64,000 nt of DNA from Roseobacter sp. (GCA_039983935.1 JBDWVP010000055.1:5048-69047), one strand, 5' to 3'. Shown: positions 1-32,142, counted from the first letter of the stretch. Made by a program: numbers and translations. The notes: generated from the sequence alone by a model not told the origin.

Positions 1-4
1 TAGT

Positions 5-3000
5 GTGAATGTGCAAACCGCCTGCTCGACATCGCTGGTTGCCACACATTACGCTTGTCAGGCGCTGATGACCGGGGAATGCGACACAGCCATTGCCGGC
101 GGGGTCACGGTCGAATTGCCCCAGAACCGTGGGTACATCTATAACGAGGGTGAGGTTCTCTCGCCTGATGGGCATTGCCATGCCTTTGATCATCGCGCCC
201 AAGGCACAGTTTTTGGCTCCGGTGCGGGGGCTGTGGTACTGCGTCGGCTGGAGGATGCCATCCGGGACGGCGACCACATCTGGGCCGTCATCAAGGGCAC
301 CGCGATCAACAATGATGGTGCTGCCAAGGCCGGTTATCTGGCCCCTTCCGTCGACGGGCAGGCCAGCGCCATCACCGAAGCGCAGCAGATGGCGAATGTG
401 ACCGCTGACACCGTTGATTATATAGAATGTCACGGCACGGGAACCTATCTTGGCGATCCGATCGAGGTCGCCGCCCTGACACAGGCGTTTTCCGAAACAA
501 CCCAAGAAACCGGGTTCTGCAAACTTGGGTCGGTCAAAACAAATATCGGGCATTTGGACACGGCCGCGGGTGTCGCCAGCATCATCAAGACCGCACTGTC
601 CTTGCATCACAAACAAATCCCGCCATCGTTGGGCTATGAAAAACCCAATCCGGCCATCGATTTTGAACACTCTCCTTTCCGGGTCAATGATAGTCTCAGC
701 GATTGGATCAGCCACAAAGGTCCCCGGCGCGCGGGCGTCAACTCGCTGGGTGTCGGGGGCACAAACGCCCATGCCGTACTGGAAGAGGCGCCCGAGCGCG
801 CCGCCTCAGACGCGCCGGAATGGCCATTCCAGCTGCTGACCATCTCGGGCCGTTCAAAAGCAGCTGTTGACGGGAATGCTGCCAATCTCGCCGCCCACTT
901 ACGCGCCCATCCGGATCAGAATTTAGCTGACGTTGCCTGGAGTTTGAAAGAAGGGCGTAAAGCCTTTGAACGGCGCCGGGTTGTGGTGGGTGAAACCGCT
1001 GCTGAGGCCGCCGCCCTTCTCGACGAAAACGATCCGCGCAAAGTCTTTAGCCATGTCGCTCTGGATCGCCCGGATCAGGTGTTCATGTTCCCCGGTGGGG
1101 GCGCACAATATGCGGGCATGGCGCGCGATCTCTACGAGACGGAGCCGGTCTTTGCTGAATGGATGGCGCGCGGGCTCGATATCCTTACGCCCAAACTTGA
1201 TTATGACATCCGCGCGCTCTGGCTGCCTGAACCCGGGCAGGAAGAAGCCGCGAATGCCGCACTACAAAAACCCTCGGTACAACTACCGCTGATCATGATC
1301 TGCGAATACGCGCTGGCCCAGCTTTGGATGAGCTGGGGTGTGCAACCGACGGCGCTTGTGGGCCACTCCATGGGCGAAAACACCGCCGCCTGTGTGGCGG
1401 GTGTGATGTCATTCGAAGACTGTATCGGGCTTGTGCACCTGCGCGGACAGCTCTTTGATACGGTCCCTGCTGGCGGCATGTTGTCCGTGTCCCTGTCCGC
1501 AGAAGATTTGACACCCTATTTGGGTGATGATCTGGATTTGGGTGCCGTGAATGCACCGTCTCTTTCTGTTGCAACCGGACCTCAGGCGGCTCTGGATCAG
1601 CTGGAAGCAAAGCTGAAGGCGGATGACATCGACTGTCAACGCATCCAAATCGACATTGCGGCGCATTCCCGCATGTTAGAGCCTATTTTAAAGGATTTTG
1701 GCGATTATCTGAAATCAATCACACTGAACCCACCACAGATCCCCTTCACCTCAAACCGCACCGGGCAGATGATCACCCCGGAACAGGCAACCAGCCCTGA
1801 TTATTGGGTAGAACACTTGCGCGGCACCGTCCATTTCGCGGAATGTATCGGCACATTGGCTGAAAAAAACCGCATCTTCATCGAGGTCGGACCGGGCCGG
1901 GCGATGGCAGCGCTGGCCGGGCAGCATCCAGCGGTTGAGGCCAATCAAGTCATCGATACCCTGCGCCACCCTGCATCTGATGCCGCAGATGACGCCTATT
2001 TTATGGCCATGCTGGGCCGCATCTGGGCGCTGGGGGGCACATTCGACTGGGCGCAATACTGGGGGGATGCCCGCCGCGTAAAAATCCCGCTGCCAACCTA
2101 TGCATTCCAAAAAAGCCCTTATTTCATCGAACCCGGTAAAACCGCATCCGAACCCGCCGAAAGCTGGCTGATGCGTGAAGAGGACACGGACCAATGGGGT
2201 TGGCGACCGGCGTGGCGTCCTGCCTATGCCGCCTGCGATATAGACGTCAGCGGCGATCTGTCCGGCATCGCGCGCGAAACATGGCTTGTCTTTGCGGATG
2301 AGGCCGGGCTGTGTGAACAGGTTAGCGCCAAACTGCGCGCCAGCGGGCACAAGGTTTTGACCGTGCGCGCCGGGGATACGTTTACCCGCGACGGCAAAGA
2401 GGATTATGTACTGTCGCCCGAACGCGGACGGGACAGTTATGATGCCTTGGTGGCTGATCTGGTTGCGCGCGAGATTTTACCCACGCGCATCCTGCATGGA
2501 TGGCTGGCCACCACGCGTGAAACCTTCCGTCCAGGGTCGAGCTTTTTCCACCGCAATCTTGAGCAAGGTTTCTTTAGCCTTCTGTTCTTGACCCAGGCAA
2601 TGGGTGACGAAGGATGGAGCCATCCCCTGCACATGACAGTGCTGAGTTCCGGCGCCGCCCAAGTCGCCCCCGGTGATCCCTTACCGCACCCTGAAAAAGC
2701 GACGCTGGCGGGACCTGCACGCGTTATTGGACGTGAATTCTCTAATATCACGGTCACCACGCTGGATCTCGACCTGCCGCAAACCACAAGCCGCAGCAAA
2801 CGTGCCCGGGTGGATGTGTCAGGTTTTGTTGCCCCGGTGTTGGAAGAAGTATTGGCCCCTCCGGTGACCCTCACGGCAGCGCTGCGCGGCCCTAAGCGTT
2901 TCGAATTGAATTATCGCGCACAACAACTGGCCCCCGTTGACGCCGTTGAAGCGATGTTGAAACCCGGTGGTGTCTATCTGATTACGGGCGGTTTTGGTGG

Positions 3001-5887
3001 CATTGGGCTGACATTGGCATGCCAGCTCATTGAAAAAACACAGGCCCGTATCGTTCTGGTTTCCCGCGCAACACTGCCGCCCAGATCAACATGGGACAAC
3101 CTGTTGGAAAACACCGCGCCGGGAGACCCGTTAGCGCGGCGCATCACAGCGGTGCGCAACCTGGAAGCCGCTGGTGGTGAGGTGCTGTGTCTTGCCGGTG
3201 ACGTGAGCAATGTCGAAGATATGCGCGACATGCGCGCCGAGATTGAAACGAAATTTGGCCCAGTGAACGGGGTGATCCATGCGGCTGGCGTCATTGAAGA
3301 CGGCCTTATTCAGACCAAAAGCATGACTGATATCGAAGATGTCTTTGCCCCGAAACTCCACGGCGTCAAAGTTCTCGAAGAGGTGTTTCCGGATGGCACG
3401 CTCGATTGGCTGGTGTTGTTTTCCTCAAGCTCCACCGCGACCGCCCCCGCCGGGCAGGTCGATTACGTTGCCGCCAACGAATACCTCAACGCCTATGCCA
3501 AATCCCGCTCAGACGGACAAACCAAGGTGCTCGCCGTAGGATGGGGCATCTGGGCAGATACCGGCATGGCTGCAGACGCCATGGCAGAACGAACAGGCAC
3601 ACAAACCCTTGCACCGATCCTGCCGGCAAACGTTCCCTTGTTGGATGAAAAGACATTTGACGCGGCAGGCAACCGGCTCTTTACGGCCAGCTATAACGTG
3701 GCAGACCGCTGGGTGTTAGACGATCACCGCACAGGTGCTGGAGATGCATTGATGCCCGGCACAGGGTATCTGGAACTTGCGGCCCAAGCCTTGGCCGCAC
3801 AGGGCGAGACGGCCGCCTTTGAAATCCGCGATCTGTATTTTTTACGCCCTCTGGCGGTTGGTGAAACCGAAACGCGCAGCGTACATCTGCGCCTGCCACG
3901 CAGCACAACCGGCTATGATATGGTGGTGGAAAGCGGCCCCGAGGATGCCCGTGAAATGAACGCACAGGCCAGCCTCGCGCTACTGCCGATGCCAAAACCT
4001 GCGCCACTTGATATTGCCGCCATCGCAGCACGCTGTGCAGCACCTAACGAGGCCGCTCCAGGGGATGCGCTGCAAAGCCCACAAGAGGTACATCTGCAGT
4101 TTGGGCCCCACTGGCGGGTCTTGCAAAAAACCGCTCTGGGTCAGGGCGAAGGCCTTGCTGAACTGGCTTTACCGCAAGTCGCTCAGGGCGACGCGACAAA
4201 CGGCTACCGGCTCCATCCCGGGCTGATGGATCTGGCCACAGGCTGGGCGATGCAGTTGATCGAGGGCTATGCAGCCAAACACCTGTGGGTGCCGGTATCT
4301 TATCGGTCCGTGCGCATCTACCGGGCGCTGCCGGATCGGGTCATCAGCTGGGTACGCAACGCGGGCGACAACCGTTCTGAGGGCGCGATCGCCAGCTTCG
4401 ATGTCACGATCGCCACCCCAGAGGGTGAAGTTTGCGTCGAAGTCACCGGCTTTTCGATCCGGCGCATGGAAAGCAGCGAAGGCTTTGCCATCGCCGCAGC
4501 ACCCTCATCAGAGAGTGGCACGGAAACAGACACCCCCCGTCCCTTGTCGCCCGCCGAAGAGCGGTTGCGTCACAATCTTTCACAGGGCATTCGCGCCGAA
4601 GAAGGCGGGGAGTTGTTCTTGCGGGCCCTCGCACTTGGGGCGCCACAGGTCATCATCACCTCCCAACCTCTCCCGGATTTGATCGCGCAGACCAGTAAAA
4701 CCGACGACGCAAGTGAAGGGGGCGGGCATACCTTTGAACGTCCCCAGCTGGACAGCGATTACGTCGAACCCGAGGGGGCGATTGAAACAACGCTTGCCGG
4801 GTTCTGGAGTGAGCTTTTAGGTGTCGACCAAATTGGAGCTGAGGATAGTTTCTTTGATTTGGGCGGGCATTCGCTGATTGCGGTGCGCCTCTTTGCGCAG
4901 ATCCGCAAAACCTACGCTGTGGATTTCCCCATTTCAGTCCTATTTGAGGCACCCACGATCCGTAAGGTTTCCGCGCTCATCGCTGAACGTGGCGGCAATA
5001 CAGCCGAAACAGACGACACCGGGGAACAAAGCAACACCGCGCGGAGCCAACCGGAACAACGCTTTACCCATCTGGTGCCGATGCACTCAGGTGAAGGGGG
5101 ACCCCTCACACCGTTCTTCCTTGTGGCAGGCATGTTCGGCAATGTCCTCAACCTGCGCCATCTCGCCCATCTTCTGGGCGCGGACCGGCCGTTTTATGGA
5201 TTGCAGGCGCGTGGGCTTTACGGCGACGCAGATCCGCATGACAACATCCCAGAAGCAGCACGTGACTACATCGCAGAAATGCGACAGGTACAGCCACATG
5301 GCCCCTATATGGTGGGAGGTTTTTCTGGTGGTGGCATCACCGCCTTTGAAATTGCCCGACAACTGCGCGAAGAGGGCGAAGAAATCTCAGCCGTCATCCT
5401 GCTCGACACGCCGTTACCGCAACGGCCTGCACTATCACGCCGGGATAGAGTCATGATCAACTGGCTCAACCTGCGCGATGAAGGGTTTGGTTATATCACA
5501 ACATGGGCGAAGAAACGTATCATGTGGGAACTCAAAAAGCGCCGGGGCGGTGCCATCGAAGATGAGGATGCCGGCCCGCAGTTTCATGATGCAGCAATTG
5601 AAGCGGCCTTCCTGCGGAGCGTTGCAGATTATCAAGTGGAATCATGGGATGGACCACTTACGCTCTTTCGTCCGCCATTACTTGCCCGTTGGGAGGTGGC
5701 TCCCGGCCGTCTCGTTGACAAGCACAAACATTATATGTTTGTCGATAATGATTGGACAAAATACGTGCCCAGCATCGACATCTTTGAGGTCCCGGGCGAT
5801 CATGACTCCATGGTACTCGAGCCAAACGTACGCGTTTTAGCCAACCGTATCAGACGAGTACTAGAGAAGGCTCCGGAAACCTCCTAA
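5..5887 (+). CDS. Type I polyketide synthase, 5'-truncated by the window edge; domains KS-AT-KR-DH-carrier-thioesterase
   Basis: The ORF is open to the window edge: the codon before nt 5 is in frame, and 'tag' at 1-3 is in another frame. KS motifs 'VQTACSTSL' (Cys codon nt 23-25), 'ECHGTGT' and 'NIGHLDTAAG'. AT 'GHSMGE' (~nt 1361). KR Rossmann 'YLITGGFGGIG' (~nt 2980) and 'VDYVAAN'. PS-DH 'LDDHRTGAGDALMPGTGYLE' (~nt 3720) lies after the KR. Carrier 'FFDLGGHSLIAV' (~nt 4850). Thioesterase 'GGFSGGG' (~nt 5315). Confidence 0.9.
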   Translation: MNVQTACSTSLVATHYACQALMTGECDTAIAGGVTVELPQNRGYIYNEGEVLSPDGHCHAFDHRAQGTVFGSGAGAVVLRRLEDAIRDGDHIWAVIKGTAINNDGAAKAGYLAPSVDGQASAITEAQQMANVTADTVDYIECHGTGTYLGDPIEVAALTQAFSETTQETGFCKLGSVKTNIGHLDTAAGVASIIKTALSLHHKQIPPSLGYEKPNPAIDFEHSPFRVNDSLSDWISHKGPRRAGVNSLGVGGTNAHAVLEEAPERAASDAPEWPFQLLTISGRSKAAVDGNAANLAAHLRAHPDQNLADVAWSLKEGRKAFERRRVVVGETAAEAAALLDENDPRKVFSHVALDRPDQVFMFPGGGAQYAGMARDLYETEPVFAEWMARGLDILTPKLDYDIRALWLPEPGQEEAANAALQKPSVQLPLIMICEYALAQLWMSWGVQPTALVGHSMGENTAACVAGVMSFEDCIGLVHLRGQLFDTVPAGGMLSVSLSAEDLTPYLGDDLDLGAVNAPSLSVATGPQAALDQLEAKLKADDIDCQRIQIDIAAHSRMLEPILKDFGDYLKSITLNPPQIPFTSNRTGQMITPEQATSPDYWVEHLRGTVHFAECIGTLAEKNRIFIEVGPGRAMAALAGQHPAVEANQVIDTLRHPASDAADDAYFMAMLGRIWALGGTFDWAQYWGDARRVKIPLPTYAFQKSPYFIEPGKTASEPAESWLMREEDTDQWGWRPAWRPAYAACDIDVSGDLSGIARETWLVFADEAGLCEQVSAKLRASGHKVLTVRAGDTFTRDGKEDYVLSPERGRDSYDALVADLVAREILPTRILHGWLATTRETFRPGSSFFHRNLEQGFFSLLFLTQAMGDEGWSHPLHMTVLSSGAAQVAPGDPLPHPEKATLAGPARVIGREFSNITVTTLDLDLPQTTSRSKRARVDVSGFVAPVLEEVLAPPVTLTAALRGPKRFELNYRAQQLAPVDAVEAMLKPGGVYLITGGFGGIGLTLACQLIEKTQARIVLVSRATLPPRSTWDNLLENTAPGDPLARRITAVRNLEAAGGEVLCLAGDVSNVEDMRDMRAEIETKFGPVNGVIHAAGVIEDGLIQTKSMTDIEDVFAPKLHGVKVLEEVFPDGTLDWLVLFSSSSTATAPAGQVDYVAANEYLNAYAKSRSDGQTKVLAVGWGIWADTGMAADAMAERTGTQTLAPILPANVPLLDEKTFDAAGNRLFTASYNVADRWVLDDHRTGAGDALMPGTGYLELAAQALAAQGETAAFEIRDLYFLRPLAVGETETRSVHLRLPRSTTGYDMVVESGPEDAREMNAQASLALLPMPKPAPLDIAAIAARCAAPNEAAPGDALQSPQEVHLQFGPHWRVLQKTALGQGEGLAELALPQVAQGDATNGYRLHPGLMDLATGWAMQLIEGYAAKHLWVPVSYRSVRIYRALPDRVISWVRNAGDNRSEGAIASFDVTIATPEGEVCVEVTGFSIRRMESSEGFAIAAAPSSESGTETDTPRPLSPAEERLRHNLSQGIRAEEGGELFLRALALGAPQVIITSQPLPDLIAQTSKTDDASEGGGHTFERPQLDSDYVEPEGAIETTLAGFWSELLGVDQIGAEDSFFDLGGHSLIAVRLFAQIRKTYAVDFPISVLFEAPTIRKVSALIAERGGNTAETDDTGEQSNTARSQPEQRFTHLVPMHSGEGGPLTPFFLVAGMFGNVLNLRHLAHLLGADRPFYGLQARGLYGDADPHDNIPEAARDYIAEMRQVQPHGPYMVGGFSGGGITAFEIARQLREEGEEISAVILLDTPLPQRPALSRRDRVMINWLNLRDEGFGYITTWAKKRIMWELKKRRGGAIEDEDAGPQFHDAAIEAAFLRSVADYQVESWDGPLTLFRPPLLARWEVAPGRLVDKHKHYMFVDNDWTKYVPSIDIFEVPGDHDSMVLEPNVRVLANRIRRVLEKAPETS

Positions 5888-5922
5888 CCAGAGCCAGAAT
5901 CACACTACAAGGACGCAACCGA

Positions 5923-6945
5923 ATGAGTACCTCCCCCTCCTCCTCTCCTTCAGGGCCTACGGTTCTAACCATCGTGCTGAATTACAAGACAGCAGAAATG
6001 ACGCTACAATCAGTACAAGCCGCGCGCACCGCCATGGAGAATATCTCTGGCGGGATCGTTGTTGTGGATAATGACAGCCAGGACGGCTCTTACGAAGCAA
6101 TCTTGGCACATGTTACGCAAGAAGGCTGGGACAAAGAAGATGCCGTTCGGGTCGTTCAAGCCGGACGCAATGGCGGGTTCGGCGCTGGGAACAATGTAGG
6201 CATCAAAGCCGGCCTTCCAGATGGGTCTATACCTGATTACATCTATGTCCTGAACTCAGACGCCTTTCCCGCACCAGATGCGATCCGCAAATTGCTGGAG
6301 CACCTGGAAGCAAACCCAAAATCTGGTTTCGCTGGCAGCTATATCCATGGCCCCGAAGGGGATAGACAACAATCCGCCTTTCGATTTCCCTCCATTATGA
6401 GCGAATTCGAAGGATCAGTTCGCCTTGGCGTGCTCACCACTCTGTTAAAAAACCACCGTGTCCCAATGGAGATTCCGACGCAAACCGGGCCCGTAAACTG
6501 GGTCGCAGGCGCCAGCATGTTAATGCGGCAAAGTGTACTTAACCAAATTGGCTTATTTGATGAAACGTTCTTTCTTTACTTTGAAGAAGTGGATCTGTGC
6601 CGCCGTGCAGGGCAAGCAGGGTACAGCACCGATTACGTACCAGCCAGTAAAGTCACGCATATTGGGTCTGTCTCCACTGGCATGAAAGAATGGAAGCGCG
6701 TGCCCTCCTACTGGTATGATAGCCGCTGGCATTATTTCTCCAAGAACCATGGTGCCTTTTACGCCATGACGGCAACTATGGCTCACCTTTGCGGTGGTTT
6801 CCTACACGCATTGCGCTGTCTGATCTTAAGACGCGACCGCCATGTCACACCTGGCTTTCTTAAGACAATGGTTACACATGACTTCCGCGCTCTTATTAGG
6901 CGCCCTACGTCCTCCCCCTTAAAGGAAAGCCAAAGCAGTATTTAA
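5923..6945 (+). CDS. Family 2 glycosyltransferase (rhamnosyltransferase-like GT-A fold)
   Basis: 'TVLTIVLNYKTAEMTLQSV...VVVDNDSQDGS' N-terminal GT2 signature, and 'YVLNSDAF' as the DxD-like region. It starts 36 nt after the PKS stop on the same strand. Confidence 0.8.
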   Translation: MSTSPSSSPSGPTVLTIVLNYKTAEMTLQSVQAARTAMENISGGIVVVDNDSQDGSYEAILAHVTQEGWDKEDAVRVVQAGRNGGFGAGNNVGIKAGLPDGSIPDYIYVLNSDAFPAPDAIRKLLEHLEANPKSGFAGSYIHGPEGDRQQSAFRFPSIMSEFEGSVRLGVLTTLLKNHRVPMEIPTQTGPVNWVAGASMLMRQSVLNQIGLFDETFFLYFEEVDLCRRAGQAGYSTDYVPASKVTHIGSVSTGMKEWKRVPSYWYDSRWHYFSKNHGAFYAMTATMAHLCGGFLHALRCLILRRDRHVTPGFLKTMVTHDFRALIRRPTSSPLKESQSSI

Positions 6946-7159
6946 GTAATCTGGAAAGCGGCATATCGAAGCGCGGTTTTATTGTTTGTTGAGCTAATCA
7001 AAGTCAAAATGCATAATAAAAGAGCCTCAAAACAGTCGAAAAATCTCTAAAATGGCCGGCAGAAGGCGGGCTACCACCCTAAAAAGGTAAATATTTTCAA
7101 CTTTTAATAGCACAGTGTTATAAACAAAAAATAGTAAGTATCATAGGTTCGGATTTTGT

Positions 7160-10100
7160 ATGTCCCACTTCAGTTCAGTCATCATCGGCAATGAAAGTCT
7201 CGCTATCCAATGCGGGGAAATACTGCTGGAGGGTGGGCATGCTATCGTCGCCGTCGTCACGCGCAACGATGATGTGAAAACCTGGGCCGTCGGGCGGAAT
7301 TTGCAGGTGGAACCCCCCGGCGCAGGGCTCGCGGATCGGCTGGCGGGGATATCTTTTGACTGGCTTTTATCGATTGCCAATCTTGATATCATTCCCCGCG
7401 CCATACTGGAGATGCCCACGCGGGGGGCGGTGAATTTCCATGACGGCCCACTGCCTGACTATGCCGGGCTCAACGCCCCGATCTGGGCGGCGCTGGCCGG
7501 TGAAAACGAACACGGGATCAGCTGGCATTTCATCGAAGGCGGTGTTGATGAAGGCGACGTGATCGCCAGCGCGCGGTTCTCTGTCTCGGACAGCGACACG
7601 GCACTGACCCTTAATACCAAATGCTATGCTGCAGCCATCGACAGCTTTGCGCAGGTGATGTCGGAACTGGCGTCGCCCTCTCCAGCCCGTACTCCCCAGG
7701 ATTTATCCCAGCGCAGTTATTTCGCCCGCGATGACCGGCCAGACGGCGGCGCACGGCTTGATTTTCAACGCCCTGCCGCGGATCTCGCACGGATTGTGCG
7801 CGCCCTTGATCATGGTGATTATTGGAACCCTTTAAGCGTCCCCAAATTTGAAGCCGGGGGGAAACTCTGGCTCGCGCGCGCCGCACATTTGGCCACCGGG
7901 GCCTCCGGTGCGGCTCCAGGTGCTGTCTGTGCGGCGGATGAAACGATCCTGACTGTTGCAACAGGGACAGGGGATCTGGTGATAACCCAGATCACCGATT
8001 GCAACGGACATCCCGCACGCCCGCAAGACATTACACGGGTTGGCGCGATCCTACCCTGCCCACAGGCTGCCGATCTGACAGAACTGACCGCAGCATTGGC
8101 ACCGCTGGCCGCCAATGATCCCAAGTGGCGCGCAACACTGGAAGGGATGAAGCCCGCAGATCTGCCGCTGATCAACAGCTCCGAAGGTGCGCCGCATCCT
8201 ATCGCGCGCCCAATCCCATTGCCAAATGGGATGGATCTCGCCCGCGCCCGTGCGGCCTTTGCGCTTTTGGCGATGCGGCTTTCAGCCACGGGCAATGCGA
8301 ATATTGCGCTGCATATACCTGCTTCTCCGGGCAAGGTCGCCCCCTACATCGCGGATTGGGCCCCTCTCATCCCTCAGCCAGAAGACAGTTTTACGACACT
8401 GGCAGCAACACTAGAAAGCAGCATGCAGGACGTGCGCATACGTGGTCCTTTTGCCGCTGACCTGATCGCGCGCCTGGCTGGTGCAGATGCGCCACCGCTG
8501 CCCCAATTGGGACTCTCAGAAGACCCAGAAGCGGGGCTCATCGGCCCCAGCGCACTGACCTTTGCCCTCAGCGCAGGGAATGCCACGCTTTTGGCGGATC
8601 AGGCCCGTGTTAGTGACACAACCCTTGATCTATATGCGGCCCGGCTGTCCCATCTGCTCGCGCATTTGGAGGCAAGCGATGAGCCCGCCGCCCTAGACAT
8701 TCTGCCCGATGCAGAGCGTCAGCGCGTGGTCAGCGACTGGAATGCGACCGGGAAAGAATACGACCCTGAACTCTGTGTCCATCAGGCTTTTGAGGCGCAG
8801 GTGGCCCGCACCCCTGAGGCTGAGGCTCTCGCCGTTGAAGGCCAAAGCCTGACATATGCGGAACTGAATGCCGCCGCCAATCGCATGGCACACAGGCTCA
8901 CAGCACTCGGGGTCTCCCCCGATACGATTGTTGGATTGCACCTGCCACGCTCAGTCGAACTGGTGGTCGCAGCGCTCGCCATTCTCAAAGCGGGCGGCGC
9001 TTACCTCCCGATGGACCCCGCCTACCCCGCCGATCGCACAGCGCTTTACATTGAGGACAGTCATGCAGCGGTGATTGTAACCAATGCCGAGCTTGCCGCC
9101 AGCATCCCCCAAGGCAACGCACGGATACTCGACATCGCCGAGGATCTCTCCGCGCTCCCGGAGGACAACATCGACAGTGGCGTTGCGGGGCATCATCTGG
9201 CCTATATGATCTATACCTCCGGCTCGACCGGGCGTCCCAAAGGGGTCATGGTTGAGCACCGCAATGTTGCGAATTTCTTTGCCGGTATGGATGATCGGAT
9301 CGATCATACCAGCGGGTCAGTCTGGCTCGCGGTAACCTCGCTTTCCTTTGACATTTCAGTTCTTGAGCTGTTCTGGACACTCGCACGTGGCTTCAAGCTG
9401 GTGCTGTCCGGGGATGAAAGCCGCACACTCGTTTCTGGCGAGGGGGGCGGTAGCACGGGCGGCATGGAATTCAGTCTCTATTACTGGGGAAATGATGACG
9501 GTGTGGGCCGCGATAAATATCGCTCGCTGCTGGAGGGGGCGAAGTTCGCAGACGAAAATGGCTTCTGCGCTGTTTGGACACCGGAGCGACATTTCCATGC
9601 CTTTGGCGGTCCCTATCCCAATCCATCCGTCACAGGGGCGGCCGTGGCCGGGTTCACAAAGAATATCGGTGTGCGCGCAGGGTCCTGCGTCGCCCCGCTA
9701 CACCATACCGCGCGCATTGCCGAGGAATGGTCTGTCATCGACAATTTGACAAACGGACGCGCAGGCCTTGCTATTGCGTCCGGCTGGCAGCCTGACGATT
9801 TTGTCTTGCGCCCGGAAAACACCCCCCCCGAAAACAAGCCTGCCATGTTCCGCCAGATCGCGGATTTGCGCAAGCTTTGGGCCGGGGAACCTGTGGAATT
9901 CCCCCGCAAAGACGGGCAGATGCACGCGGTGATCACGCAACCCCGGCCGATTTCTGCCGCGCCCGATCTATGGGTCACAACCGCTGGCAATCCCGAGACG
10001 TGGAAAGAGGCAGGGCGCAATGGCTGTCATGTACTGACCCATCTCTTGGGTCAGTCGGTCAGCGAGGTCGCAGACAAAATCAAGCTCTACCATGAGGCTT

Positions 10101-11833
10101 TGCGCGGTGCTGGGCACGACCCTGCGCAATTCAAGGTCACGCTGATGTTGCACAGTTTCCTGGCACAGACCCGCGATCAGGCCCGCGAAATCGCCCGTGA
10201 ACCGATGAAGGACTACCTGCGATCTGCTGCCGGTCTCATCAAGCAATACGCCTGGGCCTTTCCTGCGTTCAAGAAACCCGAAGGCGTGGACAACGCCTAT
10301 CAACTGGATCTTGGAAGCCTCACGGAAGAAGAACTGGAAGGCATCTTGGACTTTGCCTTTGAACGGTATTTCAACGACAGCGGGCTCTTTGGCACCATAG
10401 AAGACGCAATGGCGCGGGTTGAAGGGGTCAAGGCCATCGGCGTGACCGAAATCGCCTGCCTGATTGATTATGGCATTCAGGTGGATACGATCCTCGAGGG
10501 GCTGCGCCCGCTGGCCGAGGTCGTACGTCTTGCCAATCAAGGGGCCGGACCGGCAGAGGACGATTATTCCATCGCGGCGCAAATCACCCGCCATGGTGTA
10601 ACCCACCTGCAATGCACCCCCTCTATGGCCCGGATGCTGGTCATGAGCGACGAAGCAGGTGCCGCGCTGAAATCAGTCAAACACCTGATGGTAGGGGGCG
10701 AAGCCCTGCCCGGCGCACTGGTGCAAGATTTGAACGCACTGACGGATGCGCATATCGAAAACATGTACGGGCCGACCGAAACCACAATATGGTCCACCAC
10801 CCAAACCGCACAGGCTGGTGTTGGCGTGGTCAGCATCGGCACGCCTATCGCAAATACACAAACCTATGTGCTGGATGAAAATCTGCAGCCCCTGCCCATT
10901 GGTGTGGCCGGTGAACTCTTCATCGGCGGTGACGGGGTGACCCGAGGGTATTGGGAACGCCCGGAATTGACCGACGAACGTTTTATCCACGATCCTTTCT
11001 CTGATCGAGACGGCGCGAAGCTGTACCGCACGGGCGATCTGACACGCTGGATGCCGGATGGCACAGTGGAATTTCTGGGCCGCGCTGATTTTCAGGTCAA
11101 ATTACGGGGCTATCGGATCGAGCTGGGCGAGATTGAGACGGCCATTGACGGTTTTGATGCTGTGCGCCAATCCGTAGTCGTCGCGCGCGAAGATCAACCT
11201 GGCGTGCAACAACTCGTGGCCTACTTGCTCACCGATGGGCCCGTGCAAGAAAGCGATTTGAAAACGGCGCTCACCGCACATTTGCCAACACATATGATCC
11301 CGGCGCGGTTTGTAACGCTTGACGCTTTCCCGCTGACGCCCAACAAAAAAGTAGATCGCAACGCGCTGCCTATACCACCTGCGCCGCGCCCCGCCGCGCC
11401 AGTTAAGGCCCCGACGACAACTGCACCGACGCTCCAAACAGGCGTTCCAGCAGCACAGAATGGTGCCGCACCTGCCGATGTAAGTGCACAAATTTCTGCC
11501 ATCTGGACACGCATTCTTGGGGTCACCGGCATCACTGCACAGGATAATTTCTTTGATCTGGGGGGGCATTCCCTACTTGCCGTGCAAGCGCATCGCGAAA
11601 TCAGGTCAGAACTCGGAGCCACGAAACTATCGATCATCGACATTTTCCGCCATCCAGTTCTGGCAGATTTGTCCGCCGCCGTCAGTGCGAAACTAGGCAC
11701 ATCTGCCCCAGCTCCAGCCACGCTGACTTCCCCCCCAGCGCCGCAAAATTCCCCCACCGCCAATACCCGGGCAGATGCCATGGCCCGCCGTCGTGAAATG
11801 CGGGCACGCCGTGGTCAACAGACCGCCAAATGA
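7160..11833 (+). CDS. Single-module NRPS: formyltransferase-like domain, unassigned region, adenylation domain interrupted by a luciferase-like monooxygenase domain, PCP
   Basis: Formyltransferase-like motifs 'VNFHDGPLPDYAGLNAP' and 'GVDEGDV' (~nt 7160-8060), followed by ~230 aa unassigned. Adenylation motifs 'LAYMIYTSGSTGRPKGV' (~nt 9197) and 'SFDIS'. A luciferase-like monooxygenase insert ('MEFSLYYWG...FCAVWTPERHF', ~nt 9464-10530) sits before 'NMYGPTETT' (~nt 10759), 'GELFIGGDGVTRGYW', 'YRTGDL', 'LRGYRIELGEIE' and 'PNKKVDR'. PCP 'FFDLGGHSLLAV' (~nt 11549). The stop overlaps the next start (ATGA). Confidence 0.9.
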   Translation: MSHFSSVIIGNESLAIQCGEILLEGGHAIVAVVTRNDDVKTWAVGRNLQVEPPGAGLADRLAGISFDWLLSIANLDIIPRAILEMPTRGAVNFHDGPLPDYAGLNAPIWAALAGENEHGISWHFIEGGVDEGDVIASARFSVSDSDTALTLNTKCYAAAIDSFAQVMSELASPSPARTPQDLSQRSYFARDDRPDGGARLDFQRPAADLARIVRALDHGDYWNPLSVPKFEAGGKLWLARAAHLATGASGAAPGAVCAADETILTVATGTGDLVITQITDCNGHPARPQDITRVGAILPCPQAADLTELTAALAPLAANDPKWRATLEGMKPADLPLINSSEGAPHPIARPIPLPNGMDLARARAAFALLAMRLSATGNANIALHIPASPGKVAPYIADWAPLIPQPEDSFTTLAATLESSMQDVRIRGPFAADLIARLAGADAPPLPQLGLSEDPEAGLIGPSALTFALSAGNATLLADQARVSDTTLDLYAARLSHLLAHLEASDEPAALDILPDAERQRVVSDWNATGKEYDPELCVHQAFEAQVARTPEAEALAVEGQSLTYAELNAAANRMAHRLTALGVSPDTIVGLHLPRSVELVVAALAILKAGGAYLPMDPAYPADRTALYIEDSHAAVIVTNAELAASIPQGNARILDIAEDLSALPEDNIDSGVAGHHLAYMIYTSGSTGRPKGVMVEHRNVANFFAGMDDRIDHTSGSVWLAVTSLSFDISVLELFWTLARGFKLVLSGDESRTLVSGEGGGSTGGMEFSLYYWGNDDGVGRDKYRSLLEGAKFADENGFCAVWTPERHFHAFGGPYPNPSVTGAAVAGFTKNIGVRAGSCVAPLHHTARIAEEWSVIDNLTNGRAGLAIASGWQPDDFVLRPENTPPENKPAMFRQIADLRKLWAGEPVEFPRKDGQMHAVITQPRPISAAPDLWVTTAGNPETWKEAGRNGCHVLTHLLGQSVSEVADKIKLYHEALRGAGHDPAQFKVTLMLHSFLAQTRDQAREIAREPMKDYLRSAAGLIKQYAWAFPAFKKPEGVDNAYQLDLGSLTEEELEGILDFAFERYFNDSGLFGTIEDAMARVEGVKAIGVTEIACLIDYGIQVDTILEGLRPLAEVVRLANQGAGPAEDDYSIAAQITRHGVTHLQCTPSMARMLVMSDEAGAALKSVKHLMVGGEALPGALVQDLNALTDAHIENMYGPTETTIWSTTQTAQAGVGVVSIGTPIANTQTYVLDENLQPLPIGVAGELFIGGDGVTRGYWERPELTDERFIHDPFSDRDGAKLYRTGDLTRWMPDGTVEFLGRADFQVKLRGYRIELGEIETAIDGFDAVRQSVVVAREDQPGVQQLVAYLLTDGPVQESDLKTALTAHLPTHMIPARFVTLDAFPLTPNKKVDRNALPIPPAPRPAAPVKAPTTTAPTLQTGVPAAQNGAAPADVSAQISAIWTRILGVTGITAQDNFFDLGGHSLLAVQAHREIRSELGATKLSIIDIFRHPVLADLSAAVSAKLGTSAPAPATLTSPPAPQNSPTANTRADAMARRREMRARRGQQTAK

Positions 11834-12555
11834 GTGACCCGTTGGTGCTGGAAAAGATTTTGCGCCAATCACTGAGGAAGTCACTGGGGACCCATGTCGG
11901 GGTGGGCGTAACAGATCCACAACACCCCGCCCCACCGCTCTGGCCCGCGGAGGAGCCAGCAACAATACGAATGATCGATAAGCGCCGCCGCGAATTTGCG
12001 GCGGGACGCGCGGCTGCGCGCGCTGCCATGGCAGATCTGGGCCTGTCGCCCGCCGCCATTCCCATGAACCCGGATCGCGCGCCGCGTTGGCCAGACGGGC
12101 TGTGTGGTTCGCTCTCTCATTGTGCCACAGCAGCCGTTGCAATCGTTGCGCGTTGTGAAGACACGCCCAGTCTGGGTATCGACATCGAAGAAGATACCGA
12201 CCTGCCCCCTGATTTATGGCCCGACATCCTGACAGCCCGCGAACACGATTGGCTGATGGCACAGGTACCATCATCCAGAGGGCACCACGCCAAGTCGATC
12301 TTTACCGCCAAAGAAGCGGTTCACAAACTGCATTACCCATTAAGCGGACAGGTATTGGGATTTGACGACGTCACAATCACACTCGCCCCTCATAGTTTCT
12401 GGACGCAGCTGCCAATTGGCGTGCCCGGTTTACCCGAGATGATCTATGGGCACATCTTTCGAGCAGAAAACCTGCTCATAACGGCCATCACAGGCACACA
12501 AAAACCCGCGCAACAAGCCGGTACAATGCGCGAATATAAGGCTTCTCTTACATAA
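11830..12555 (+). CDS. 4'-phosphopantetheinyl transferase (Sfp/EntD type)
   Basis: 'SLSHC', 'LGIDIEE' and 'FTAKEAVHKL' match the PPTase core motifs. It is translationally coupled to the NRPS. Confidence 0.8.
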   Translation: MSDPLVLEKILRQSLRKSLGTHVGVGVTDPQHPAPPLWPAEEPATIRMIDKRRREFAAGRAAARAAMADLGLSPAAIPMNPDRAPRWPDGLCGSLSHCATAAVAIVARCEDTPSLGIDIEEDTDLPPDLWPDILTAREHDWLMAQVPSSRGHHAKSIFTAKEAVHKLHYPLSGQVLGFDDVTITLAPHSFWTQLPIGVPGLPEMIYGHIFRAENLLITAITGTQKPAQQAGTMREYKASLT

Positions 12556-12723
12556 AATCGTCTTCCACCTATGTTCAATTACACCACAGGGGTGGCAGGT
12601 GACGGCTGAAAAAAGAGTTGCAGAAAAGATCATTCACAGAGACGGTAAGGCAATGGAAAAGAGCCCTTATGGAATCGCAGACACTCAAACTTTTTCTACA
12701 TTTACCGGACCTGCTTTAGGATC

Positions 12724-13671
12724 ATGACATTCTGTCGTCTCAAACGAAAATCCGTTGCTATCCTTCTGCTCTTGGTGTCGGCATGTGGCATGACTACACG
12801 CTGCGGCGGCCCCCCCGAACCGCTCGATAAAGCCGCCTTTAACGCTCTTTACACGACACCTCTTGCACCACCAGACAAGGGGCTCAACACGTATCATCTC
12901 GGGCACAGCCTTGTTGGACACACCATCCCTGTGATGCTGCAACAGCTTGCCGGTGAAGACCACAGGTTTTCAAGCCAGCTCGGCTCAGGAACCAATCTGC
13001 GGGCCCACTGGGAACCAGATATCGCGATCAAACACTTCGAGGAGACAAATAGGCATCCTCAATATCGTGACCCTCATGAGGCGCTCGCCTCCGGAACTTA
13101 TGATGCGCTGATCGTGACCGAGACCGTCGAAATTCGGGACAGCATCAAATATCACGATTCACAGGGGTATTTGCGTAAATGGGCCAGCAAAACCTGGTCA
13201 AACAACCCTGAAACACGGGTCTACCTTTATGAAACCTGGCATAAACTTGATGACGAGGAAGGTTGGCTGGCACGGCTCGATCGCGATTTGGATCAGTACT
13301 GGGAAGGTGAAATTCTGCGCCGCACCCTCGCACATGATGACATAAACCAGACCATTTATGTCATCCCAGGTGGTCAGGTGATGGCCGCCTTTGCTCGCAA
13401 AATAGATGCCGCAGGCGGTATCGGAACGCTCTCAAGCCACAAGGATCTTTTTTCGGATCACATTCATTTCAACGACTTTGGAGCTTATCTGATGGCGTTG
13501 ACACACTATGCTGTCCTCTATAGTCGCTCTCCTGTGGGGCTCCCATATGCCCTGTTGCAACCTGATGGCAGCCCTGCAGAAAACCCTGGACCAGTGCTTG
13601 CGCGAGCGATGCAGGAAACAGTTTGGGACGTTGTGACTAACTATTCACCAAGCGGTGTATCAGGCGATTGA
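12724..13671 (+). CDS. Predicted lipoprotein of unknown function (weak SGNH/GDSL-like signatures)
   Basis: Signal peptide with lipobox 'LLLVSAC'. 'HLGHSL' near the N-terminus and 'SDHIHFN' near the C-terminus resemble SGNH blocks I and V. I recognised no firm family. Confidence 0.5.
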   Translation: MTFCRLKRKSVAILLLLVSACGMTTRCGGPPEPLDKAAFNALYTTPLAPPDKGLNTYHLGHSLVGHTIPVMLQQLAGEDHRFSSQLGSGTNLRAHWEPDIAIKHFEETNRHPQYRDPHEALASGTYDALIVTETVEIRDSIKYHDSQGYLRKWASKTWSNNPETRVYLYETWHKLDDEEGWLARLDRDLDQYWEGEILRRTLAHDDINQTIYVIPGGQVMAAFARKIDAAGGIGTLSSHKDLFSDHIHFNDFGAYLMALTHYAVLYSRSPVGLPYALLQPDGSPAENPGPVLARAMQETVWDVVTNYSPSGVSGD

Positions 13672-15020
13672 GCGGCAAGCTCAGCGCGGCCTTCAACAGA
13701 GATTTCAATCACCCGTTCGAAGGCGTCACCGCTGTACCAGAAAACAAATGCAGCACATAGCACCGCAAGTACGGCAAAAGTAATGTCATGCAAAGGGTCC
13801 GCCCCCCGGTAAGGGCGGATCAACCAGACCAGAAACGGATAGATCAGAAGCGCTGCGAGCGGTTGCGCGCCCATAGCACCTATCAGACCGAATTTCATCA
13901 TGCCGACAGCTAACAATGTAATCTGCAAGGTCGCGCGGCAGATCTGAAAGTACATATATACATTAGATTTCCCAACAGCCAGCAACAGGTTGGGATAGGA
14001 TTGAATAATCAAGCTGGGCATCAGGAAGACGGCCAAAAGTACAAGAATAGGGCCCGAGTCCCGGTACTCCTCCGTATAAAGGAAATCGATCAACCACTGC
14101 CCCATGAGCGCCAACACAAAAAGCAGCACAAACATTCCCCCCGTCAGCGCAAAGCGCGTTTTGGAAATCGCACGTCTGTTGGGAGCAGACTGAGCCGGGG
14201 GCCGGGCACTGTAAAGTGGAAAGATCACCCGGTTCATGAGCTGCCCCATGAGCGTCATCGGAACAGAAGCGAAAAAGAACGCAATATTGTAAAAACCCAA
14301 GTAAGCAAGACTGATAAATTTCGAAAGCAGAAGCCGATCGCCATTCTCGATGACAAAGGTCAGCCCAGAACTGACAAAGAGGTATTTTCCAAAATGAAAC
14401 TGTTCATGAACCGCCGCGCGTTCAAACTGCAATCTGTTAGGATGGCCCGGTAAGATTAGGTGGGACAAGACCGTCTTGGACAGGTTCGCCACGATCATCC
14501 CGATCATCAACGCCCAAACCGACTCCCATATCAGCGCCAGAACAATCATCGTAATAATCATCAGCACCTGAGACCCCATATCCATGAGCGTCAGGCGTCC
14601 CATGAGGATCTTCTTATTCGCCGTCGCGATACGGGTTGAACGTAAACCCATCAGAAATACCGAAAATCCGATCCCATACATCAGTTCATGCAGGATTGGC
14701 TCCCCGTAGAACTGCGCAACAGGCCCGGCCACGATACAACAAATCACCGCCAAAAGCGTGTGGCGGATAATCTGCAACGTCCAGGCTGTGTTGAGAAATA
14801 CCGGTTCATCGCCCCGTTTTGACCGCACGATGCAGGTTGCTAAACCGATATCCGAAACCATCTGGATGCCCGTCATAAGCACGGTGACGATCGTCATTAA
14901 ACCGAAGGCCTCAGGGAACAAAAGGCGTGTAAGAATGAGGTTTGACCCAAGCCGCATAAGCTGGCTGAGACCAAAACCCACAAAAGTCAGGGCCGAGCCA
15001 CGGATAACCCGTGCGCCCAT
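13641..15020 (-). CDS. Polysaccharide flippase (Wzx / PST-family, multi-TM)
   Basis: 'MGARVIRGSALTFVGFGLSQLMRLGSNLILTRLLFPEAFGL' is a typical Polysacc_synt N-terminus, and the whole protein is hydrophobic. ATG at 15020 is preferred; the ORF track starts at a GTG at 15059. Confidence 0.75.
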   Translation of the reverse strand: MGARVIRGSALTFVGFGLSQLMRLGSNLILTRLLFPEAFGLMTIVTVLMTGIQMVSDIGLATCIVRSKRGDEPVFLNTAWTLQIIRHTLLAVICCIVAGPVAQFYGEPILHELMYGIGFSVFLMGLRSTRIATANKKILMGRLTLMDMGSQVLMIITMIVLALIWESVWALMIGMIVANLSKTVLSHLILPGHPNRLQFERAAVHEQFHFGKYLFVSSGLTFVIENGDRLLLSKFISLAYLGFYNIAFFFASVPMTLMGQLMNRVIFPLYSARPPAQSAPNRRAISKTRFALTGGMFVLLFVLALMGQWLIDFLYTEEYRDSGPILVLLAVFLMPSLIIQSYPNLLLAVGKSNVYMYFQICRATLQITLLAVGMMKFGLIGAMGAQPLAALLIYPFLVWLIRPYRGADPLHDITFAVLAVLCAAFVFWYSGDAFERVIEISVEGRAELAAQSPDTPLGE

Positions 15021-15086
15021 TCCGTCGCCCGAAAGTTTCGCTTGAATAGCGCTCAGCACAGCGCGCGCCTGGTTCGAAGGTACATT

Positions 15087-22473: not shown

Positions 22474-23076
22474 ATGAAAAACTTGAAACTTCTCGGACTA
22501 ATCGTCGCCTTCCTGATCTCTATGGTCTCTGTGACATGGGCACAGGGCAACTACCGCGTGCAGGCTGGCGACCTGCTGACAATCGAAATTCTTGAGGACC
22601 CCAGCCTGAACCGGTCAACTGCGGTCTTACCGGATGGGAACTTCAGCTTTCCCTTTGCGGGGACATTACGCGCTGGCGGTCAGACCGTTCCGCAAATCGA
22701 AACCTCTATCCGCGACGCCATCGCCAGTAACTTTGCCAACACGCCGACTGTGTTTGTATCGGTTCAGCCTCTTCAGCGCGAAGAAGAAGAAGGCGATCTC
22801 ATCAAAATATTCCTGCTGGGCGAAATTCCGGCACCGGGGCTTGTCGAATTGGATGCAGGCAGCACCATTCTACAGGCCATCGCCGTTGCGGGTGGGCCAT
22901 CCCGTTTTGCTGCCACCAAACGACTGCAACTGCGACGCACAGATAAGCGAACCGGCCAGCAAAGCGTGACAACGATCAATTATAAGGCCCTATCTAAAGG
23001 GGCCGCCCTGAGCAGAGATATCGTATTAAAGGACGGTGATGTCATTCTTGTCCCTGAACGCCGCTTGTTTGAATAA
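22474..23076 (+). CDS. Small periplasmic polysaccharide export protein (Wza/Poly_export + SLBB)
   Basis: Signal peptide 'LISMVSVTWA|QG'. 'YRVQAGDLLTIEI...LPDGNFSFPFAGTLRAGGQTVPQIE' is a Poly_export motif, and 'GSTILQAIAVAGG' is SLBB-like. Confidence 0.8.
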   Translation: MKNLKLLGLIVAFLISMVSVTWAQGNYRVQAGDLLTIEILEDPSLNRSTAVLPDGNFSFPFAGTLRAGGQTVPQIETSIRDAIASNFANTPTVFVSVQPLQREEEEGDLIKIFLLGEIPAPGLVELDAGSTILQAIAVAGGPSRFAATKRLQLRRTDKRTGQQSVTTINYKALSKGAALSRDIVLKDGDVILVPERRLFE

Positions 23077-32079: not shown

Positions 32080-32142
32080 GTAGCCCTCATGTGACGTCTT
32101 TTTATTAAGATACCTGAAAACACGGTATATGCAAGAAAACAC

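Follow-up and report, generated by a model that had tools for sequence, protein, structure and literature searches.

A 64,000-nucleotide stretch of Roseobacter sp. DNA (GCA_039983935.1, JBDWVP010000055.1:5048-69047), called the window below, opens with four genes for a type I polyketide synthase (PKS), a family 2 glycosyltransferase (GT2), a nonribosomal peptide synthetase (NRPS) and a phosphopantetheinyl transferase (PPTase). We are nearly certain that this is a plasmid-borne member of the PKS-GT-NRPS-PPTase cluster conserved among roseobacters, and that it is a known cluster and not a new one. The main addition here is a conserved linkage of the core to polysaccharide genes, together with two candidate genes, for an SGNH-like lipoprotein and a Wzx-type flippase, that are absent from earlier descriptions. 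In our reading, two proteins form an assembly line with a single extension step, and its product would enter a Wzx-dependent cell-surface glycan; we put the probability of this reading at about 0.5. A link of the cluster to glycan synthesis is plausible, at roughly even odds.

A plasmid-borne copy of a conserved roseobacter cluster

Open reading frame (ORF) calling, together with Pfam and NCBIfam searches, places four intact co-directional genes on the plus strand of window positions 1-12555 in the order PKS, GT2, NRPS, PPTase (Table 1). An earlier note on this DNA, made from the sequence alone, had described these genes as tightly spaced or overlapping, and they are. The PKS and GT2 genes are separated by 35 nt, an AT-rich spacer of 214 nt precedes the NRPS gene, and the NRPS and PPTase genes overlap by 4 nt, with the PPTase ATG sharing the ATGA of the NRPS TGA (CAAATGAGT). 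By this overlap the PPTase is predicted to be translationally coupled to the NRPS. The GT-NRPS spacer is not common to all genera: L040 (Leisingera) and L018 (Thalassobius) have the two genes overlapping. An internal promoter may lie within the spacer; the scan found one sigma-70-like match there, at 6989-7017, which does not rise above the shuffled background. No terminator-like site was found on the plus strand in 5800-13800. Promoter and terminator counts were at or below those of shuffled sequence, and the scan says little about transcription. No riboswitch or other known RNA element in Rfam matched at the gathering threshold in the window or in the sister contig L002.

The same order of PKS, GT, NRPS and PPTase genes has been reported from 28 of 57 roseobacter genomes as a conserved cluster, credited to Martens et al. 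2007, for which no product has been identified (PMC4337385, PMC5014874). These reports confirm the conserved cluster that the earlier note had mentioned. The cluster of Martens et al. 2007 has the same four genes in the same order, and its proteins are orthologous to those of the window. The window copy differs from it in lying on a RepA/ParAB plasmid (~80 kb) beside an exosortase-type exopolysaccharide (EPS) locus, and in having the 214-bp AT-rich spacer between the GT and NRPS genes. This plasmid and EPS context is shared by Primorskyibacter, which has the same neighbor arrangement with no exosortase seen, and by a decayed copy in Tateyamaria. Up to 2024, none of the literature that we found names a product for the conserved cluster. 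Genome-mining papers of 2023 and 2024 still list a roseobacter ‘NRPS-like/T1PKS’ cluster as unknown; in the 2023 paper the similarity of this cluster to MIBiG entries is below 8%, with an NRPS gene of 4,527 nt and a PKS gene of 6,333 nt, and from these matching gene sizes we take it to belong to the same family.

Homologues of the NRPS with identical architecture number in the hundreds, at 57-79% identity. The window NRPS is 74% identical to a ‘peptide synthetase’ of Ruegeria sp. ANG-R and 61% identical to that of ANG-S4, and a scaffold of Leisingera sp. JC1 (L061) is colinear with the window across all four genes (PKS 51%, GT 50%, NRPS 56% and PPTase 44% identity). At least 591 GTDB species representatives, one genome per species, encode the NRPS, and the comparisons of loci given below cover the best 80 of these at least 591 relatives, mostly Rhodobacterales plus four Hydrogenophaga. 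All 80 loci keep PKS-GT-NRPS(-PPTase) colinear and on a single strand, with the GT2 gene located between the PKS and NRPS genes in every one. All four genes are detectable in 69, the PPTase going undetected in the other 11. The complete colinear core is also found in the betaproteobacterial Hydrogenophaga (L019, L021, L022 and L028; NRPS identity 57-59%), which points to horizontal transfer of the core between classes. When a characterised relative was sought, the NCBIfam equivalogs (SolG, AusA, EntF, MxcG, Pks13, PfaA and others) all scored far below their cut-offs, which agrees with the earlier view of an orphan hybrid unit. PDB matches of the PKS and NRPS are generic domain matches. A megablast search against plasmids found only the Tateyamaria omphalii plasmid.

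Polysaccharide genes around the core

In 72 of the 80 loci, at least one polysaccharide-type neighbor lies within 10 kb of the core (Wzz in 52, an extra GT2 in 48, Wzx in 43 and the SGNH-like gene in 34). The Wzx orthologues share 38-45% identity with the window protein, rising to 70-77% in Primorskyibacter. They are encoded on the same strand directly upstream of the PKS gene in Shimia, Thalassobius, Roseovarius and others, and at the end of a longer gene string in Leisingera and Sulfitobacter. The tightly spaced Leisingera string runs PKS-GT2-NRPS-PPT-SGNH-X834-GT2-(GT4 on the opposite strand)-Wzx, with Wzz beside it. The copies in Hydrogenophaga have GT4, GT2, an AAA_22 ATPase and a WbaP-type transferase on their flanks, and those in Cypionkella an Acyl_transf_3 protein and a GT2. 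Because the linkage to glycan genes holds in 72/80 loci and extends to the neighbors in Hydrogenophaga and Cypionkella, we regard it as characteristic of the whole family and not peculiar to this plasmid by chance. For a type I PKS gene within a capsule cluster, wcbR/rkpA offer a precedent. The idea that the assembly line is self-contained becomes doubtful with the core among polysaccharide genes in 72/80 loci. Nor do the lipoprotein and flippase genes look like outside context, as the earlier note had them, since other genera have their orthologues in one string with the core. The suggestion of a surface-associated product rather than a classical antibiotic is now better supported.

The 315-aa predicted lipoprotein has GHSL and DxIH motifs that are invariant in 20 and 28 homologues. 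No Pfam family matched it above threshold (DUF4886 and GDSL_2 were sub-threshold) and a PDB profile search returned one weak match. In its AlphaFold model (mean predicted local distance difference test score, pLDDT, 92.3), the eight best Foldseek matches are GDSL esterases or esterase-type hydrolases (E ~1e-4), at modest target-normalised template modeling (TM) scores of 0.27-0.59, and lower matches include carbohydrate esterases, sialate O-acetylesterase and the periplasmic domain of OafA, a lipopolysaccharide O-acetyltransferase. The model suggests a divergent SGNH/GDSL-hydrolase fold. Orthologues lie at most 2.5 kb after the NRPS/PPTase genes in 32/80 loci, and the unit probably includes this lipoprotein as its fifth member.

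A further protein of the Leisingera string, which we call X834 (834 aa; L040 18417-20921), belongs to no Pfam family and has homologues in 57 loci, often in the same string as the core. Its N-terminal ~230 residues are a paralogue of the SGNH-like lipoprotein (~31% identity), and its C-terminal part carries glycoside-hydrolase-looking motifs (YVEYSNEVWNW). The window has no full-length copy. Another ORF of that locus, ‘X463’ (L040), was set aside as an antisense artefact, the actual gene there being the GT4 on the other strand.

The assembly-line proteins

The full-length PKS, read from identical sister contigs recovered through the GT protein, has 2128 aa, starts directly with the ketosynthase (KS) domain and contains no loading domain. 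About 167 of its N-terminal residues lie outside the window (gene start at L002 3579, window start at L002 4079), and this missing 5' part, inspected in the sister contigs, adds no extra module. A hidden loading module or second NRPS 5' of the window was considered and rejected, the sister contigs putting the PKS start ~500 nt upstream. The Pfam order of KS, acyltransferase (AT), ketoreductase (KR, as prefix and KR), dehydratase (DH, double-hotdog), carrier (T, PP-binding) and thioesterase (TE) domains agrees with the order first read from the sequence, including the N-terminus outside the window. The KS Cys/His/His, AT Ser, KR Ser/Tyr, DH His/Asp, carrier Ser and TE Ser/His residues are invariant in 72/72 full-length homologues, and because of this invariance we consider all six domains to be under selection. 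The ‘IED’ motif would mark the KR as B-type, the type preceding dehydration, and a residue other than Gln after the AT serine leads us to infer malonyl-CoA as the extender.

Modular PKSs usually have the order DH-KR, and here the KR comes before the DH. This order prompted us to consider an iterative PKS of the enediyne or polyunsaturated fatty acid (PUFA) synthase type, a candidate that proved unsupported, as KS-AT, KR and DH all match modular, hybrid or trans-AT PKSs best. The nearest PDB entries to KS-AT are 8xju/8xjz (an unnamed PKS whose structure was determined along with a peptide synthetase), CurL and other hybrid or modular PKSs, and those to KR and DH are domains of modular and trans-AT PKSs. 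The PDB matches of the three regions name no enediyne or PUFA synthase. As judged by these relatives, the PKS would fit a KS that takes an aminoacyl unit and a module that is used once.

The NRPS is a single module with tailoring domains, as had been described, with the amendment that we read the module as a starter, without a working condensation (C) domain and without a TE. Neither domain gave a Pfam match in the NRPS, the C domain not even at E <= 10. Residues 292-540 are the least conserved part of the protein (27-40% identity) and match, by profile, the C-terminal end of the C domain and the linker between the C and adenylation (A) domains in McyB, Txo1, Txo2, McyA, TycB, PvdL and EntF (E = 3e-12). 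We read this region as a relic of a C domain. The NRPS would then descend from a C-A(monooxygenase)-T elongation module in which a formyltransferase (F) domain took the place of the front part of the C domain, giving a starter module. Foldseek made no fold assignment for residues 292-460, the match list for the 547-residue model being filled with formyltransferases. In the absence of a working C domain, the protein likely follows the logic of a starter module.

The A domain has the specificity code DILQMGMIWK (GrsA positions 235-517), found in 90 of the 120 listed proteins, with DILQLGMIWK in 5. We take this code to belong to the glycine code family DILQLGLIWK, and the A domain is accordingly predicted to be of the glycine type. 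Inserted between its core motifs A4 and A5 is the luciferase-like monooxygenase, which scores 461 bits against the TIGR04020 cut-off of 244. The N-terminal F domain has N92, H94 and D130 invariant in 16 and 23 homologues, and it is fused in cis to the A-T module in every homologue of the NRPS. The basic C-terminal tail could serve as a docking element for the PKS N-terminus, which has no docking extension itself.

The identification of the two smaller core genes as a GT2 and an Sfp/EntD-type PPTase with ATGA coupling is upheld by Pfam and by sequence. The GT2 belongs to a GT-A fold family and appears soluble, a segment scan finding no hydrophobic or transmembrane-like segment; the NCBIfam models for MftF and rhamnosyltransferases match it weakly, below cut-off. 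The PPTase has the two-lobed 4PPT_N and ACPS architecture of the ~230 aa type, with motifs GIDIEE and FTAKEAVHK, and the Npt, PptT and EntD models match it, all below their cut-offs.

A proposed pathway

The biosynthetic order would run from NRPS to PKS, and not in gene order, because the NRPS is read as a starter module that lacks a working C domain, and a KS stands first in the PKS. The default skeleton would be glycine plus one malonate, a C4 unit. In the pathway that we propose, the PPTase would prime the two carrier domains, and the NRPS starter module would activate glycine and load it onto its own T domain. The FMT-like domain would N-formylate the glycine and the embedded luciferase-like monooxygenase would hydroxylate the glycyl alpha-carbon. 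The unit would then be handed to the N-terminal KS of the PKS for a single malonate extension, followed by reduction by the B-type KR and dehydration by the DH to give a 4-formamido-(4-hydroxy)-but-2-enoyl thioester, which the TE of the PKS would hydrolyse or transfer. The GT2 would link this product to a sugar, or attach it to a sugar acceptor, and the glycoconjugate would join the polysaccharide pathway: Wzx would flip it, and the SGNH-fold lipoprotein would take part in the periplasm, in the role of an acyl esterase or transferase. What the computation shows is which genes and domains are present, that their catalytic residues are intact and conserved, that the A-domain code is of the glycine type, that the genes belong to the conserved cluster and that a linkage to polysaccharide genes is conserved; each chemical step is inferred, as are the sugar or other acceptor used by the GT2 and what becomes of the product. 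The glycolipid or lipo-amino-acid proposed in the earlier note finds no support, the domain content including no fatty-acyl ligase, starter C domain or enoyl reductase (ER). Taken to the family level, the proposal is that the orphan PKS/NRPS cluster found most widely in marine roseobacters is a conserved module of a Wzx-dependent pathway and not an ordinary secondary-metabolite cluster, and that a glycosylated N-formyl-(hydroxy)glycine-malonate C4 unit is built into, or decorates, an EPS or capsule; this we hold tentatively, at a little short of an even chance.

Parts of this scheme have counterparts in known assembly lines. A glycine-specific NRPS loading module starts the PKS lines of oxazolomycin (OzmO) and conglobatin (CongA). 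The window system resembles these in having a glycine-type NRPS loading module ahead of a KS, with both the specificity and the hand-over being predicted here. It differs, as compared by description, in lacking a cyclodehydratase of the CongE/OzmP type, in having a single PKS module instead of a multi-module PKS, in the monooxygenase embedded in its A domain and in an F domain of the FMT/ArnA type. The loading modules of OzmO and CongA also carry an F domain. Oxazole formation as in oxazolomycin was rejected for the window product, since the required cyclodehydratase motif SGGKDS is absent; neither it nor the looser SGGxDS occurs in any frame of the window, and the SGGKDS motif was not found in any frame of 86 loci.

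In MtaG and MelG (myxothiazol and melithiazol) and SolF (solanimycin), glycine A domains are split by a flavin monooxygenase that is proposed or inferred to alpha-hydroxylate the glycyl unit; solanimycin B retains the hydroxyl, and in myxothiazol it leads to release of the amide. The likeness lies in the insertion of a monooxygenase into a glycine-type A domain, here between A4 and A5. Those proteins, however, act as elongation modules and have a working C domain, MtaG and MelG with a TE of their own, whereas the window NRPS has a C remnant behind a front F domain and release would fall to the TE of the PKS. LgrA of linear gramicidin shares the N-terminal formyltransferase fused to an A-T starter module, and in the PDB search LgrA chains gave the NRPS its best overall match, one carried by the A and T domains. 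Between the two F domains the relationship is distant (E = 1e-5, where ArnA/FMT give 1e-18), and LgrA has neither the embedded monooxygenase nor the C remnant and continues with C domains where the window system continues with a KS.

Weighing the alternatives

Several points weigh against the reading of an assembly line feeding a Wzx-dependent glycan. Eight of the 80 loci have none of the tested polysaccharide neighbors within 10 kb, and the order of neighbors differs between genera. The G+C content of the core is 0.575-0.61 (the bin with the AT-rich spacer excepted) and that of window positions 12001-64000 is 0.51-0.57, mostly 0.51-0.55, so the core stands 5-6 points above the neighboring SGNH and Wzx genes and the remainder of the plasmid. 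This gap may cast doubt on a shared history of the core and the SGNH/Wzx genes on the plasmid; a separate origin could account for it, as could the amino-acid make-up of megasynthases. The chemistry is also open to challenge. An N-formyl-alpha-hydroxyglycyl unit could collapse to formamide and a glyoxylyl thioester, by analogy with MtaG, and the substrate of the F domain could be an amino sugar, as this domain is nearer in sequence to ArnA, FMT and sugar N-formyltransferases than to LgrA. Whether the PKS works once or iteratively cannot be read from its sequence, and the product proposal is drawn from gene content and comparison.

A last point of this kind comes from Tateyamaria omphalii plasmid pDOK1-4-6 (L001 11500-18520 joined to L086 1-3900), the exception among the loci and the one relative in which pseudogenisation of the core was found. 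There, the PKS is frameshifted near residue 1865, a deletion of ~4 kb joins GT residue ~210 to NRPS residues 1248-1512, and the PPTase is truncated. The genes for the SGNH-like protein (70% identity) and Wzx (61%) are intact beside an XrtD exosortase, as are those for Wzz and the AAA ATPase, and they are syntenic with the window. Glycan genes can exist without the core, and from the decay it seems that the glycan can dispense with the assembly-line product, which would be an addition to it and not an essential primer.

Were the four genes a stand-alone cluster, they would make a small diffusible glycoside, such as a signal, an antibiotic or a metal binder, with the glycan genes as mere neighbors brought there by common pools of nucleoside diphosphate (NDP) sugars or by the same flexible genomic regions. 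The eight loci without polysaccharide neighbors and the distinct G+C content of the core speak for this, as does the four-gene core being the only part found in all 80 loci, among neighbors that differ in kind and layout from locus to locus; self-sufficient secondary-metabolite clusters typically have a TE and a PPTase of their own. Such an account must nevertheless accommodate polysaccharide-type neighbors in 90% of loci, far above chance for genes that make up a small fraction of the genome, and an association that holds in both Alpha- and Betaproteobacteria. In several genera the core and the Wzx, GT2 and SGNH genes are tightly spaced on one strand, and no regulator or drug-type exporter (MFS, ABC or RND) was seen conserved beside the core. 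We therefore consider a stand-alone cluster unlikely, while still deserving of attention.

A second alternative takes its cue from RkpA and WcbR, type I PKSs whose genes are described within capsular-polysaccharide clusters of rhizobia, Burkholderia and Nitrosomonas. An iterative PKS would extend the glycine-derived starter to a long unsaturated acyl chain (KR and DH, no ER), which the GT2 would glycosylate and which would serve as a primer or anchor for the polysaccharide; a lipid anchor has been proposed for RkpA/WcbR too. The likeness, a type I PKS amid genes for surface-polysaccharide synthesis and export in Proteobacteria, is seen at the level of those descriptions, which in the portions consulted mention no NRPS partner; the partners in the window are also of the Wzx/Wzz/Wza type. 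The PKS genes embedded in capsule clusters of rhizobia and Burkholderia, the unusual KR-before-DH order and the GT2 that is always adjacent all lend the idea some weight. It is quite unlikely, given that KS-AT, KR and DH are nearest to modular, hybrid and trans-AT PKSs with no enediyne or PUFA synthase named among their PDB matches, that an ordinary Bac_transf initiating transferase in the window and in Hydrogenophaga loci implies a polyprenyl-phosphate primer, and that the glycan genes of T. omphalii persist despite a decayed core, against an essential anchor.

The F domain prompts a third alternative. It aligns with ArnA, FMT and sugar N-formyltransferases at E ~1e-17 to 1e-18, and with the F domain of LgrA at E = 1e-5; its model (pLDDT 90.6) superposes on FMT/ArnA with target-normalised TM scores of 0.75-0.83 in Foldseek. 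ArnC, the enzyme after ArnA, is a GT2. That the F domain formylates an NDP-amino sugar like ArnA or WbkC, with the GT2 acting like ArnC and the glycine-malonate unit attached afterwards, would suit the polysaccharide context and the nearness of the domain in sequence and fold to ArnA, FMT, WbkC, FdtF, QdtF and WlaRD, yet it is improbable for a domain fused in cis to the A-T module in every homologue, when the sole known use of an F-A-T fusion is N-formylation of a carrier-bound amino acid (LgrA, OzmO/CongA) and the substrate of FMT is itself an amino acid in ester linkage, similar to an aminoacyl thioester. We retain the glycine-started, one-extension line feeding a Wzx-dependent glycan as our working model.

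The plasmid and its polysaccharide locus

The replicon is a RepA/ParAB plasmid of ~80 kb, and at least 8 contigs of 74-81 kb from different assemblies carry an identical GT protein. With RepA and ParAB in the window along with a dense set of polysaccharide genes, calling it a polysaccharide plasmid was apt. UDP-glucose dehydrogenase and ManC genes adjoin Wzx. The other polysaccharide genes of the window, besides those in Table 1, encode a GNVR chain-length protein with its P-loop partner, an AAA_22 ATPase, several GT4 and GT2 enzymes, a DegT aminotransferase, RmlC and RmlB. Between Wza and a GT4 lies a 466-aa ORF (23036-24436) with no Pfam match, whose position would suit a polymerase (Wzy) or a membrane protein of the ligase-like kind. 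Amid the polysaccharide genes, positions 26029-29526 encode a protein of 1165 aa that has RTX calcium-binding repeats. The plasmid also carries genes for a sulfotransferase (PF13469; 21389-22339) and a fused ATP-sulfurylase/APS kinase (62245-63954), which suggests that the plasmid-encoded polysaccharide is sulfated.

Upstream of the PKS gene, the sister contigs have an AT-rich intergenic region, a 66-aa ORF, a 213-aa VPLPA-CTERM protein and an exosortase. The 213-aa protein ends in ...VPLPASMLMFASAFGLLGAQRLRKKT, a VPLPA-CTERM sorting signal, and the exosortase, an EpsH/EpsI fusion, is encoded on the minus strand just 5' of the window (L002 50-3190). Among the 80 related loci an exosortase was seen only in L017. 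The Tateyamaria plasmid has annotated XrtD and EpsI at the equivalent place upstream.

Table 1. Positions of the core genes, their domains and selected neighboring genes in the window
Feature	Position	Strand	Basis or remark
Type I PKS, 5'-truncated at window edge	1-5887	+	Pfam, NCBIfam; full-length gene in sister contigs
PKS KS domain (partial)	1-784	+	TACSTS active site, HGTGT, NIGH
PKS AT domain	1079-1912	+	GHSMG, AAHS
PKS KR domain	2189-3559	+	GGFGGIG, catalytic Ser and Tyr, ‘IED’ at LDD position
PKS DH domain	3635-4474	+	His in HRTGAGDALMP, Asp in DLATG
PKS carrier domain, peptidyl carrier protein (PCP)-like	4793-4981	+	GGHSL
PKS TE domain	5117-5884	+	GFSGG, GDH
GT2 glycosyltransferase	5923-6945	+	340 aa; PF00535/PF13641/PF13632
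AT-rich GT-NRPS spacer, 214 bp	6946-7159	.	sequence
NRPS, 1557 aa	7160-11833	+	Pfam, NCBIfam
NRPS FMT/ArnA-like formyltransferase (F), residues 1-291	7160-8032	+	Formyl_trans_N/C; N92/H94/D130 triad
NRPS putative condensation-domain remnant	8033-8779	+	profile match
NRPS A domain N-part, through core A4 (FDISVLE)	8780-9439	+	AMP-binding
NRPS inserted MupA/Atu3671-type luciferase-like monooxygenase, residues 771-1121	9470-10522	+	TIGR04020
NRPS A domain C-part, core A5 (NMYGPTE) onward; AMP-binding_C	10565-11359	+	Pfam
NRPS T domain (GGHSL)	11489-11683	+	PP-binding
NRPS basic C-terminal tail, residues 1509-1557	11684-11833	+	conserved; consensus RxDAMARRREMRARR
PPTase, Sfp/EntD-type, 241 aa	11830-12555	+	PF17837 (E = 9e-24) and PF01648 (E = 3e-11)
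Predicted lipoprotein, SGNH-like, 315 aa	12724-13671	+	lipobox LLLVSAC; invariant GHSL ... ETWH ... DxIH
Wzx-type flippase (Polysacc_synt)	13641-15059	-	Pfam; convergent with SGNH-like gene
Wza	22474-23076
ParB	29654-30643	-	plasmid maintenance module
ParA	30691-32142	-	plasmid maintenance module
RepA replication initiator	32533-33534	+	PF10134
Bac_transf initiating transferase	41987-42676	-

Implications

Roseobacters are dominant colonisers of marine surfaces and symbionts of algae and animals, and this cluster has been noted in about half of their genomes since 2007. The window shows that a RepA plasmid can carry it along with an EPS locus of the exosortase type. The value of the present analysis is a sharper hypothesis for the cluster, with a glycine starter, a C4 unit, a conserved coupling to polysaccharide genes of the Wzx type and two extra candidate genes. 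If the hypothesis is true, the cluster should be studied as part of surface-glycan synthesis, in the settings of attachment, biofilm formation and host recognition, and not as an antibiotic locus, and this could explain why metabolite extraction found nothing. It would also amount to a glycan modification made by an assembly line, which is not described in the literature that we found, and which could bear on how roseobacters attach to algae and animals.

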